A stretch of DNA of 64,000 bases, taken from an uncultured cyanobacterium (GTDB taxonomy: Bacteria > Cyanobacteriota > Cyanobacteriia > Cyanobacteriales > CAWCAG01). The stretch spans positions 608,001 through 672,000 of the forward strand of contig CAWCAG010000007.1 in assembly GCA_963793425.1 (NCBI GenBank). The letters run 5' to 3'. The notes below the pieces were generated by a model, which worked only from the letters and a program-made list of their open reading frames with translations, was not told the origin of the DNA and ran no database searches. Below are positions 52,129-54,502 of this stretch, in pieces. The position numbers were made by a program, and so were the translations under genes. Positions within the stretch are counted from its first letter, which is position 1. Each line of letters starts with the position of its first letter.

Positions 52129-52337
52129 TATTTTTTTCCTCTCTTATTGAAGCTCTAAAGTTTTTAGGAAAACTTTAGAATCCATTTTAAGCAAGGAGTG
52201 TTACCAAACGGCAGTATTGCTTGTTAGCGTTAGAAAAGTTCATCATTTTTGCAATTTATGAGGTTTCTTTGGATTGCCAGATGAGAAGAAGAAATGGCAA
52301 AATAATTGAGAACTGTCAAGATGGGGAATACTGATTT

Positions 52338-53057
52338 ATGAATAAGCTCCCAACACGAGTCAATTTAAAGAAAAAATGGCTGTCCAGGTTACTTCTAGCC
52401 ATATCATCTCTGCTTTTACTAACTGGATTATGGGCTACACCAGCCCAAGCTCAAATTTACGATCTCCCTCAAGTTAGGGCCGGAGAGCCAACTTGGGTTA
52501 TAGATACAGCTAATCTACTTAGCCGCAGCAACAGAGGTAAGTTAAACAACGTTTTAGAAGACTTAGCCGACAAAACCGGAAACGAATTCCGCTTCGTAAC
52601 TGTCCGTCGTCTAGATTATGGCGAAACTATTGAAAGTTTCACTGATAAACTTTTTCAGAGTTGGTTTCCTGCTTCAGAAGACCAAGCCAACCAAAGTTTA
52701 CTTGCTTTAGACTCTGTTACTAATAATGTTGCTCTCCGTAGTGGTGATGCGGCTCAAAAGCTGTTGACGGAGGATATAGCTAGCAGCATAGTTGCTGAAA
52801 CTGTGGGCATCCCATTAAGGGAAGGAAATAAATATAACCAAGCTTTTCTTGATGCTAGCGATCGCGTATTTGCTGTACTGTCTGGACAACAAGATCCTGG
52901 CCCTCCTCAAGTAAAAGAGCAAATTAATATTGAATCTACCTATGCTACGGCTGAGGAAACCGATGACCGCAGCGCAACAGTTTGGGTAATTGGTATGTTA
53001 ATTGTGGCCACAATTATTCCTATGGCTACTTATTTCTTCTATCAAAGTGGAGGCTAA
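52338..53057 (+). CDS. psb32: photosystem II repair protein Psb32 (TPM domain)
   Basis: Signal peptide, RRLDYGET, YNQAFLDASDR, DPGPP, C-terminal TM ATIIPMATYF. Confidence 0.88.
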   Translation: MNKLPTRVNLKKKWLSRLLLAISSLLLLTGLWATPAQAQIYDLPQVRAGEPTWVIDTANLLSRSNRGKLNNVLEDLADKTGNEFRFVTVRRLDYGETIESFTDKLFQSWFPASEDQANQSLLALDSVTNNVALRSGDAAQKLLTEDIASSIVAETVGIPLREGNKYNQAFLDASDRVFAVLSGQQDPGPPQVKEQINIESTYATAEETDDRSATVWVIGMLIVATIIPMATYFFYQSGG

Positions 53058-53101
53058 ACTAATTTTTTGTTTAGGCAAGAAGTTTTTGAGGTGAAATAGG
53101 C

Positions 53102-53153
53102 AAAAAACCCCGACCGAAGCCAGGGAAAGTTTAACCATCAGGGTGCATCTACT
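53102..53153 (-). ncRNA. NsiR1-like small RNA, copy B
   Basis: AGTAGATGCACCCTGATGG...CCCTGGC-TTCG-GTCGGGG-TTTTTT; TCCGGA at 53185-53190 (about -35). Confidence 0.7.
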
Positions 53154-53184
53154 TAATGCTTTATTTCCCTGCTTCGTCTTCTAT

Positions 53185-53190
53185 TCCGGA
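53185..53190. promoter_or_regulatory. DIF1-like TCCGGA -35 element of copy B
   Basis: TCCGGA-N19-AATAAAG on the minus strand, same spacing as copy A. Confidence 0.65.
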
Positions 53191-53213
53191 TCATTTAAAA
53201 ACTAGTTAAAAAG

Positions 53214-53265
53214 AAAAAAATCCCCCGACCGAAGCCGGAGGAGGAATTACCAGGTTGCATCTACC
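53214..53265 (-). ncRNA. NsiR1-like small RNA, copy A
   Basis: GGTAGATGCAACCTGGTAATTCC-TCCTCCGGC-TTCG-GTCGGGGGA-TTTTTTT; TCCGGA at 53296-53301 (about -35). Confidence 0.7.
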
Positions 53266-53295
53266 ACTTCTTTATTGCATGGCTTTTCTTGGGTT

Positions 53296-53301
53296 TCCGG
53301 A
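53296..53301. promoter_or_regulatory. DIF1-like TCCGGA -35 element of copy A
   Basis: TCCGGA-N19-AATAAAG on the minus strand. Confidence 0.65.
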
Positions 53302-53469
53302 TGAATTCCTAAAAAGACTCTACTCAAGGCTGAAATAGTAATTCTTTTGGCTAACTAAAACTATTAAGTACCAATTTATACTTTGAAGTAATTACTCTTT
53401 TTTTTAATAAGCAGGGAATAATATATTCAACATACTTTAAAGCTTTAACATCTGAGATCAACCTTTATA

Positions 53470-53485
53470 TGTGATATAGATCGCA
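53470..53485. promoter_or_regulatory. near-consensus CRP-type site
   Basis: TGTGA-TATAGA-TCGCA (9/10). Confidence 0.45.
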
Positions 53486-53769
53486 GCAGTAAAACCACTG
53501 ATAGCTATAAGATTGTTTTGTTGCCCAATAACAGTGGATTTTCTCATTAGTAGATTTTAATAATCACTTTAGTTATTTCCAAACAGTTAAGCAGAAAAAT
53601 TATTATTCAATATCCTTAGTTTCTATTTAACCTGACAAGGAGAAGCAAGCTATGTTTTGTAGGAAAGAATCTTAAATATAGTCAACTTTGTCAGAATTTC
53701 TCTAGTTACAAAAAGCAAGTTGAAGTCTCGAAATCATCGTTAAAATTTATTTATGCCAAGGCAAGGACA

Positions 53770-54249
53770 ATGATTCAACTCCAAGAATCACTAGCCCCAA
53801 ATCAAACTTTTATAATGCCTCGTCTTATGGGAGCTAATCTTCATAAAGCTCAACTAGAACAAGCTCGACTCATGGATGCCGATCTAATTCAAGCTAATCT
53901 AGTAGGAGCGAAACTTAATCAAGCTGTTCTTACCAGGGCAGAAATGACCGTTGCTGATTTAACAGAAGCTGATTTAACAGAAGCTAATCTCGAAGGAGCT
54001 AATCTTATTGGTGCTAATCTCCGAGGTGCTAATCTCGAAGGAGCTAATCTCATTGGTGTTAAACTTATTGGTGCTAACTTAGTAGAAGCCAATCTCACTA
54101 ATGCAGATTTACGGGGTGCAGATTTAAGCGCTACTAACCTAACAGCAACTAAAGTCAAAAATGCTCGTTTCAGAATTAACAGAGGGATAACTCCAGCAAT
54201 GAAACTTGAGTTACAACAAAGAGGAGCAATTTTTGAAGAAGCAAAATGA
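53770..54249 (+). CDS. pentapeptide repeat protein
   Basis: Tandem A(N/D)Lxx repeats. Confidence 0.92.
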   Translation: MIQLQESLAPNQTFIMPRLMGANLHKAQLEQARLMDADLIQANLVGAKLNQAVLTRAEMTVADLTEADLTEANLEGANLIGANLRGANLEGANLIGVKLIGANLVEANLTNADLRGADLSATNLTATKVKNARFRINRGITPAMKLELQQRGAIFEEAK

Positions 54250-54280
54250 TTAAACTCTAAAAATAAAGTTTCTAGGGTTA

Positions 54281-54502
54281 GGGCAGGTTTATCTAGTTCA
54301 ATGTTAATCTCACAATTTGAGTTTTGAACCTGCCCCAAAAGATTGCTACATTCTTAGGTATATCAAGCTAAGCTGTCAGGTATTTAGATTGTATTGCTAG
54401 GGTAGGGGAGTAGGGAGCAGGGAGCAAGGAGCAGGGAGTAGTAAAGACATCGGGAGAAATTTGGTTAATGCCAAAAATCCCAGTTTAAATGCGTCTTAGC
54501 TT
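54281..54502. repeat. cluster of small cyanobacterial repeats (REP-like hairpin, IR element, heptamer STRR)
   Basis: GGGCAGGTT...AACCTGCCC (54281-54335); AAGCTAAG...CTTAGCTT (54365-54502) enclosing GGGAGCA-like heptamers. Confidence 0.6.

Follow-up and report, generated by a model that had tools for sequence, protein, structure and literature searches.

Tandem NsiR1-family small RNA genes in a probably non-heterocystous cyanobacterium and their candidate place in the HetR/HetZ circuit

The cyanobacterial small RNA (sRNA) NsiR1 has been presented as a heterocyst-specific RNA of heterocystous strains (PMC6596454; PMC4030482), encoded near hetF and associated with DIF1 promoters (PMC4030482; PMC9045159; PMC6596454). 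In Nostoc/Anabaena PCC 7120 it is an RNA of ~55-60 nt that begins with (U)GGUAGAUGCACCCUGAU and ends in a Rho-independent terminator, and its genes form tandem direct repeats in which every copy has its own TCCGGA promoter (PMC9045159; PMC4030482). The known targets in Nostoc are hetF and alr3234 (PMC9045159; PMC11797042). In Nostocales its expression is described as HetR-dependent and confined to developing heterocysts. Homologues outside heterocystous strains are already recorded and barely discussed: Table S3 of a survey from 2016 gives 38 NsiR1 homologues in 89 genomes (27 heterocystous), with plus signs for Trichodesmium IMS101, Arthrospira PCC 8005, Oscillatoria PCC 7112 and others (PMC4734099), and an NsiR1-like 57-nt RNA (RNA162) was reported in 2021 from Limnospira indica PCC 8005 (PMC8400943). 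Here, we describe two tandem units of this family in a 64,000-nt stretch of an uncultured cyanobacterium (contig CAWCAG010000007.1, positions 608,001 to 672,000; hereafter the window), and compare them with the other copies in the same genome and in related genomes.

The DIF1 motif has recently been connected with a specific regulator. HetZ is described as a sigma factor whose promoters have TCCGGA at -35, a spacer of 16-17 bp, and TGnA at positions -13 to -10; in the published mutagenesis a G at -13 was only a partial substitute, and the A at -10 was important (PMC13342950, 2026). In Anabaena PCC 7120 such sigma-HetZ promoters serve patS, patX, hetR, and patU5-patU3 (PMC13342950; PMC7377430). 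For Leptolyngbya BL0902, which is non-heterocystous, a DIF1 promoter has also been predicted ahead of patX-hetR, in a study that calls the role of HetR, PatX, HetZ, and PatU in filamentous non-heterocystous cyanobacteria a mystery (PMC11298460).

Two NsiR1-family units in the window

The window contains two matches to TCCGGA-N30-33-GTAGATGCA, both on the minus strand (53301-53256 and 53190-53144), and the pattern has a count of zero in each of 100 dinucleotide-preserving shuffles of the window. The two TCCGGA motifs are 111 bp apart (the units as a whole 111-112 bp) and lie 31-32 nt 5' of GTAGATGCA. Both units continue from TCCGGA through a 16-nt spacer and a -10 element to an RNA 5' end of the form GUAGAUGCA(A/C)CCUG, followed by a GC-rich stem closed by a UUCG loop and then by a U-tract. 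A terminator scan returned exactly two hairpins, one per unit. The tandem layout first recognized in a sequence-only reading of this DNA is borne out. The same reading had likened the units to NsiR1. Tested against the Rfam covariance model RF02399 (NsiR1; curated gathering score 39 bits), unit 1 reaches 44 bits over model positions 1-60, and RF02399 is the sole Rfam family that attains its cut-off anywhere in the window. The elements of the two units are as follows.

53296..53301, minus strand: -35 element of unit 1, TCCGGA (DIF1 motif); sequence reading and pattern match
53276..53279, minus strand: -10 element of unit 1, TGCA, 16 nt past TCCGGA; fits the published TGnA
53214..53266, minus strand: predicted unit 1 sRNA, NsiR1 family, ~53 nt, seed UGGUAGAUGCAACCUGG; RF02399 44 bits, terminator scan, fold
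53242-53221, minus strand: terminator-like hairpin of unit 1, 9 pairs, TTCG loop, followed by a T-run; terminator scan
53185..53190, minus strand: -35 element of unit 2, TCCGGA; sequence reading and pattern match
53165..53168, minus strand: -10 element of unit 2, GGAA, 16 nt past TCCGGA; partial fit to TGnA
53100..53155, minus strand: predicted unit 2 sRNA, NsiR1-like, ~55 nt, seed (UA)AGUAGAUGCACCCUGAUGG; RF02399 33.5 bits, terminator scan
53125-53108, minus strand: terminator-like hairpin of unit 2, 7 pairs, TTCG loop, followed by a T-run; terminator scan

Each unit has its own DIF1-type promoter, as had been proposed, and that of unit 1 (TCCGGA-N16-TGCA) is a full match to the sigma-HetZ rule; no sigma-70-type promoter was matched ahead of either unit in a promoter scan. 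With TGnA at -13 to -10 and a spacer of 16-17 bp, the predicted +1 of unit 1 is 53266, which is also the first position of the Rfam match, with 9 nt between TGCA and UGGUAGAUGCAACCUGG; for unit 2 it is ~53155. The 5' ends near 53265 and 53153 given earlier therefore needed only a small adjustment, and the predicted lengths become ~53-55 nt in place of ~52. Aligned to each other, the units have TCCGGA, AATAAAG, GTAGATGCA, the hairpin loop with its 3' arm, and the T-run in common, and diverge in the promoter spacer and the linker, which agrees with the earlier remark that the spacers had drifted while these elements were kept. The seed of unit 1 is two positions off the family consensus (GCAACCUGG in place of GCACCCUGA), while that of unit 2 equals the consensus over GUAGAUGCACCCUGAU without differences. 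Unit 1 is predicted to fold with a clean terminator hairpin. In the minimum-energy fold of unit 2 (53100-53155, minus strand) the seed CCCUGAUG is paired with the 3' arm of the terminator and not free, in a fold that is not distinctive (z-score -0.49).

The host genome (G000; 5.28 Mb in 9 contigs, 98.6% complete) holds 11 matches to RF02399, 8 of them above the cut-off, and none of 14 control genomes has a match above it. A scan for the seed gives ~12 family copies at ~9 loci, among them clearly diverged ones at C7:66770 and C5:1627315 (contig and position in the host genome). These copies fall into two promoter classes: class A, with TCCGGA, to which both window units belong, and class B, with a palindrome that resembles a HetR site. 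The family is thus dispersed, unlike the array by hetF in PCC 7120 (PMC4030482), and the window has two copies in place of 12, which do not lie by hetF. Judged from their sequences, both window units are sRNA genes of the NsiR1 family, preceded by promoters of the DIF1 (sigma-HetZ) type. The locus adds members to a known family and no new kind of element, which for the window alone is an ordinary result; the suggestion that the module was undescribed falls with the match to RF02399, since the sequence-only reading had itself named membership of a described family as speaking against novelty.

In a genome of the same genus (G044), both units recur with promoter elements, seeds, and terminators almost unchanged. 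Between the -10 region and the U-tract, TGCAATAAAG included, unit 1 differs there by a single loop base and has the same two seed substitutions, and the sequence 3' of unit 2 can no longer be aligned.

The units occupy a 712-bp intergenic gap, bounded by psb32 (at its 3' end) and by a gene for a pentapeptide-repeat protein, and neither is antisense to any open reading frame (ORF). The neighbors, given for context only, are:

52338..53057, plus strand: psb32 (photosystem II repair protein), downstream of the units and convergent; NF047379 319.8 bits, cut-off 160
53770..54249, plus strand: pentapeptide-repeat protein, upstream of the units and divergent; penta_HetL 82.7 bits, cut-off 260

By the NCBIfam cut-off the latter gene is not HetL (82.7 versus 260 bits). 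The earlier observation that hetF is not nearby is confirmed insofar as the window contains no CHAT-domain (hetF-type) gene, as judged by the CHAT domain and not by a hetF-specific model; the genome has 34 CHAT-domain matches, the nearest of which ends ~10.6 kb before the window start.

Host, distribution, and promoter classes

The host encodes hetR, and its closest HetR relatives, from Spirulina, Lusitaniella, Lyngbya, and similar genera, are 77-80% identical. Among the best 80 relatives in contigs taken from one genome per species (74-80% identity), titles include Spirulina, Lusitaniella, Lyngbya, Arthrospira, Planktothrix, Microcoleus, and Leptolyngbyaceae, and none is Nostocalean. Just upstream of hetR lies a patX-type gene for a signal-peptide-like protein with ERGSGR, with a TCCGGA of its own ahead. 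HetZ was located via the published -35-contact residues, and hetZ (C7:380570-381712) scores 634.2 bits with NF037963 (cut-off 550); a HetZ-related paralogue reaches 621.3 bits with NF037964 (cut-off 612), and both proteins have the R..DY..Q residues to which -35 contacts are assigned in PMC13342950. Directly 3' of hetZ is a gene that we call patU from two UniRef homologues of that name and from synteny, the hetZ-patU order being described in PMC7377430. For nifH the host genome gave no match to the cut-off (a single match of 215 bits versus 394), and no HetP-family gene was found in it, while the same search gave four in one relative (G051) and one in another (G064). Heterocysts are therefore unlikely, in line with the earlier impression of the host, which is very probably, from its gene content, a non-diazotrophic, non-heterocystous filamentous cyanobacterium that keeps the HetR/PatX/HetZ/PatU core circuit. 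With a core circuit in a host of this kind, the sRNAs would belong to the circuit and not to heterocyst formation as such, and cell-type-specific expression in the Nostoc sense does not apply.

Another gene (L165, C5:1606629-1607978) had been tried as HetZ because of a HetR-like site upstream, and was rejected as a conserved hypothetical protein (PF27138/PF27130) that has no relative in the PDB and no HetZ name. Its locus (C5:1606494-1607978) is of some interest in itself, with the HetR-like palindrome GTGATGGGTGTCACCCCTCAT upstream of a 449-aa protein. At E <= 1e-10 this protein has 1140 relatives, most of which are without a name or labelled 'hypothetical', and those few that bear a name are cyanobacterial; the PDB search was by sequence.

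Two sets of genomes were compared: 43 named hetR-bearing non-heterocystous genomes, drawn from the list of HetR relatives, and the host genome with 30 relatives, one per genus. All 43 named genomes contain NsiR1 above the cut-off, frequently as tandem arrays, and in 60 copies from the 30 best loci the -35 region has an exact TCCGGA in 49, one mismatch in 10, and none in 1; the module is accordingly not peculiar to this host. In the second set NsiR1 is above the cut-off in 17 genomes and HetR in 16, and all 16 HetR-positive genomes have NsiR1, as against 1 of the 15 HetR-negative ones. The latter (G054; 92% complete, 850 contigs) has three NsiR1 matches, the best of 54.5 bits, as well as class B patterns, but no HetR_C match, and most likely its hetR was not assembled. 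The gene hetZ is present in 34/34 genomes examined (above the cut-off in 32). The co-occurrence of NsiR1 and hetR indicates that NsiR1 follows hetR and not heterocysts. As a presence pattern across genomes, this strict association in non-heterocystous lineages seems to be new, whereas the occurrence of NsiR1 homologues in such strains (PMC4734099, Table S3; PMC8400943) and of DIF1 in non-heterocystous Leptolyngbya (PMC11298460) had been recorded before, which removes a further part of the novelty once suggested. Those records of Limnospira RNA162 and of the Trichodesmium, Arthrospira, and Oscillatoria homologues likewise concern NsiR1-family genes in hetR-bearing, heterocyst-free cyanobacteria, and, as consulted here, consist of an annotation remark and a supplementary table without promoter, copy-class, or target analysis. 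That the module may be older than heterocysts is compatible with its distribution. In the relative with four HetP paralogues (G051), NsiR1 copies form a tandem array and hetZ is preceded by a HetR site of the published type, so that this genome is probably Nostocaceae-like (probably heterocystous).

What the copies share lies at the 5' end: GTAGATGCACCCTG is >=90% conserved over 111 distinct copies of both classes, which have 108 distinct 3' parts, and an alignment of 29 copies (28 genomes) is near-invariant over its first 16 nt. Covariation was sought with RNAalifold on a MAFFT alignment of the 29 copies, which returned only the pairing of seed and 3' arm that is also predicted for unit 2, with zero compensatory changes; the alignment had misplaced the variable hairpins, and we make no covariation claim from it.

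The class B copies have an architecture of their own:

C5:302890, C5:303114, C5:1627637, C5:1627313, and C9:1006366: five NsiR1-family copies without TCCGGA; seed scan and pattern

In these, a palindrome of the GGGTGACACCCC(T/C)C type stands 26-28 nt before GTAGATGCA and is followed by an ordinary TATATT/TATAAT-like -10 box, which places it in the -35 region with its center ~33 nt upstream of the RNA start. It has the GGGnnnnnCCC form that is the structural requirement for HetR binding, as described for the 17-bp inverted repeat of the hetP promoter (PMC4192349), a site that it resembles; the window units carry TCCGGA instead. The pattern GGGN5CCC-N22-32-GTAGATGCA occurs in 59/73 genomes (the host, 43/43 named genomes, and 15 of the 29 relatives searched, all 15 of which also hold NsiR1), while the reversed pattern, used as control, gave 3 matches in all; a few of the real matches are plainly non-palindromic and probably due to chance. 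In the host genome GGGGTN3ACCCC is observed 11 times versus ~1.2 expected. G051 has one class B copy, with an RNA nearly identical to the class B RNA of the host. One of the palindromes could double as the gatB terminator. Two of the palindrome strings were not found in a full-text literature search. The class B palindrome is a putative HetR site, and from its recurrence this promoter class seems widely conserved and a new lead.

Several further palindromes were observed in the host genome. An exact 17-bp hetP-type HetR site lies at C9:228375 (within GTGAGGGGTCTAACCCCTCAT), and no HetP-family gene was found in the genome; the ORF behind it (C9:228466-229056, 146-196 aa) belongs to no NCBIfam family and, close to an internal ATG, matches the seed weakly (-15.4 kcal/mol). 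At C5:1627086 (L205), 230 bp past a pair of class B copies, there is a third palindrome of the class B type, GGGGTATCACCCCTCACCCC. The sequence after it does not contain the NsiR1 seed, and the element may represent either a degenerate copy or a further promoter with a HetR site. Three tandem arrays (C7:405658-406880, ~152 bp x8; C9:49140-50950, 203 bp x9; C1:274030-275150, 311 bp x4) are built of units that start with a GGGGGN5CCCCCC palindrome and continue with conserved hairpin-like segments; these units gave no Rfam match at E <= 0.01, and in those of the 203-bp array a segment, TAGGGTGCAT, could pair with part of the NsiR1 seed by complementarity. Finally, a CHAT-domain gene (C5:299318-301183) 2.6 kb from the class B pair was considered as HetF and rejected, as there is no match to the HetF model and glmU lies in between; given 34 CHAT matches in the genome, this proximity may be chance.

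Seed complementarity to patU and hetR

Since the published hetP-family (alr3234-type) target was not found in the host and the units are antisense neither to any gene nor to a hetF leader, complementarity to the seed was sought in the genes of the circuit itself; all duplex energies were computed without target accessibility. At the hetZ-patU junction of 31 genomes the best seed duplex averages -20.05 kcal/mol, compared with -14.22 +/- 1.12 for 40 shuffled seeds (the best of which reached -16.66) and -13.35 for the antisense strand. The site is of the GGTGCATCTAC type and covers -18 to 0 relative to the ATG with which the gene downstream of hetZ begins, where 21/28 patU starts reach <= -17 kcal/mol, versus 1.1% of 3665 start regions of the host genome. 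Its sequence is kept in 9/31 genomes in which hetZ ends earlier and the stretch does not code for HetZ, and GCA TCT within it is retained at synonymous positions in most genomes. The early stops themselves (L230-L232, L235-L237, L212, L219, L233) arise in 6 cases through a TGA that turns TCCGGA into TCCTGA, and the element that follows, GGGGCATC...ATGAAT, is kept in those 9/31 genomes although it no longer codes for HetZ.

A second complementarity was found in hetR leaders (n=80, -350 to +30), with a mean seed duplex of -17.47 kcal/mol, compared with -13.40 +/- 0.76 for 60 shuffled seeds (best -15.68) and -13.9 to -15.4 for eight control regions of the same loci. GGGTGC occurs in 54/80 leaders on the sense strand and its complement in 16/80. 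The 10-bp pairing motif [AG]T[CT][AG]GGGTG[CT] is found in 14/80 leaders versus 0-2 in each of seven control regions, at positions -105 to -214 and mostly -105 to -138, which puts the site ~105-140 nt upstream of the hetR start codon; at its two variable positions, changes occur only between pairs that still match via G:U. A slighter enrichment is seen in the hetZ leaders (-350 to +30; 31 genomes, L208-L237 and the host), which average -17.94 kcal/mol versus -15.07 +/- 0.82 for shuffled seeds.

The copies of the host genome appear to differ in their preferred site. For those ending in CCCUGAUG(A/G), which comprise class B and unit 2 of the window, the best partner is the hetR site (-21 to -24 kcal/mol), and for those ending in CCCUGGU, unit 1 along with two further copies, it is the patU start (-19 to -22 kcal/mol). 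When 3663 leaders of the host genome are ranked by seed duplex, hetR is 33rd and patU 39th, and the top three were discarded as artifacts, being antisense to sRNA genes. Target prediction within the single genome, in which the first 24-26 nt of the units were compared with the 100-nt start regions of 6136 ORFs, was set aside as too noisy to stand alone, its top match pairing only with the non-conserved part of unit 1, and so was an 11-mer scan that tolerated G:U (516 sites). The conserved seed matches to the start of patU and to the leader of hetR seem to be new and are offered as leads.

Competing explanations and a proposed RNA arm of the circuit

We think it probable, without regarding the matter as settled, that the units are independent ~53-55-nt NsiR1-family sRNA genes that act in the HetR/PatX/HetZ/PatU circuit, are likely transcribed with sigma-HetZ, and pair through their seed with mRNAs of the circuit. 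RNA polymerase with the sigma-HetZ encoded in the host would most likely read TCCGGA and the -10 element and transcribe each unit, and the invariant, single-stranded 5' seed would then pair with mRNAs of the same circuit, one site being at -18 to 0 of the patU start codon and the other in the hetR leader. Pairing at the first site would block patU translation and reinforce sigma-HetZ activity; because PatU3 inhibits sigma-HetZ (PMC13342950; PMC7377430), repression of patU by a sigma-HetZ-driven RNA would form a positive loop. The effect of pairing on hetR could go in either direction. The promoter of unit 1, together with the presence of hetZ and its paralogue, resembles the situation in Anabaena PCC 7120, and dependence on HetZ is here a prediction. 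Intergenic TCCGGA-N16/17-[TA]G[ACT]A sites number only 29 in the host genome, and 5 of these front NsiR1-like genes.

Several observations weigh against this proposal. A search for public RNA runs that include positions 52300-54300 of the window listed none. Unit 2 remains under the Rfam cut-off end-to-end (E 2e-4 in a 1.5-kb search), its minimum-energy fold shows a weaker, less clean terminator hairpin than unit 1, and its promoter (TCCGGA-N16-GGAA) is a partial match with G instead of T/A at -13. The same looseness is seen in relatives, where 65 NsiR1 promoters with exact TCCGGA divide into 29 strict fits to the sigma-HetZ rule, 15 loose fits, and 21 without fit, and many class A promoters elsewhere are without the A at -10. 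Within 900 bp upstream of hetZ no GGGN5CCC was found in 24/31 genomes, the host included, so that the link from HetR to hetZ, assumed from Anabaena, is unconfirmed here and the class B palindromes cannot be compared with hetZ sites of the same genomes. As to the targets, the patU duplex of the host (-17.7 to -21.7 kcal/mol) is interrupted by internal mismatches, and the hetR site, which is distant from the ribosome-binding site, is weak in G051 (-13.2). The compared genomes are related, so the statistics overstate their independence, and with an invariant seed compensatory changes cannot be counted. Moreover, the 3' end of hetZ contains a conserved TCCGGA-N17-TGAA element within which the patU site falls, in a stretch that codes for the HetZ C-terminus in most genomes, so the conservation of the site may have causes besides sRNA pairing, and a transcript started at a promoter internal to hetZ would be without the site.

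This last point is the core of an alternative that we consider unlikely overall but deserving of attention, in which the units are real NsiR1 genes with sigma-HetZ promoters whose targets are other than patU and hetR, and the complementarity at the hetZ-patU junction is a by-product of an internal TCCGGA-N17-TGAA promoter and of HetZ C-terminal coding. The site falls exactly in the spacer of that element and encodes SG(A/S)GAS(T/S) in most genomes, a hetZ-internal promoter serving patU5-patU3 has been described (PMC7377430) along with sigma-HetZ binding upstream of these genes (PMC13342950), and target lists from a single genome are noisy. Promoter function, however, does not explain a conserved GGTGCATCTAC spacer, since the spacers of the NsiR1 promoters themselves are not conserved; the element is kept in the 9/31 genomes with a shortened hetZ, GCA TCT is retained at synonymous positions in most genomes, and the complementarity in the hetR leader is a second and independent one. 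A reading of the units as functionless copies of a dispersed repeat, silent or in decay, seems improbable. The score and poor fold of unit 2, the two seed substitutions in unit 1, and the diverged copies elsewhere in the genome would fit such decay, but both units are nearly unchanged in G044, with the seed substitutions of unit 1 preserved while the flank 3' of unit 2 has diverged, and the same architecture is found in 43/43 named genomes. Least of all do we expect the units to act as in Nostoc, where regulation is of the heterocyst type and concerns hetF, by antisense, and a commitment gene resembling hetP. The RNA family is the same, and Table S3 of PMC4734099 prints the same seed for NsiR1 of Nostoc PCC 7120, NsiR1 itself being the sole entry there that contains the seed 9-mer. 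Against this, a HetP-family gene was not found in a genome that is nearly complete, nor nifH to its cut-off, and the units, between psb32 and the pentapeptide-repeat gene in a window without a CHAT-domain gene, are not antisense to any gene.

Beyond this locus, we tentatively suggest, with rather less assurance than for the units themselves, that NsiR1 is an ancestral RNA arm of the HetR/sigma-HetZ/PatU/PatX circuit in hetR-bearing filamentous cyanobacteria and not an invention of heterocysts, with paralogues behind either HetR palindromes or sigma-HetZ promoters and a seed that pairs with the patU start and the hetR leader. The predictions point to an NsiR1 target that has not been examined in the Nostoc model, the hetZ-patU5 junction, and tractable strains exist, including Leptolyngbya BL0902 with its hetR and patX deletions, so that the ancestral circuit would, if the predictions hold, be open to cheap and concrete tests. 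If the proposal is true, feedback through these RNAs would make an on/off decision sharper in organisms for which what HetR does is still a mystery.

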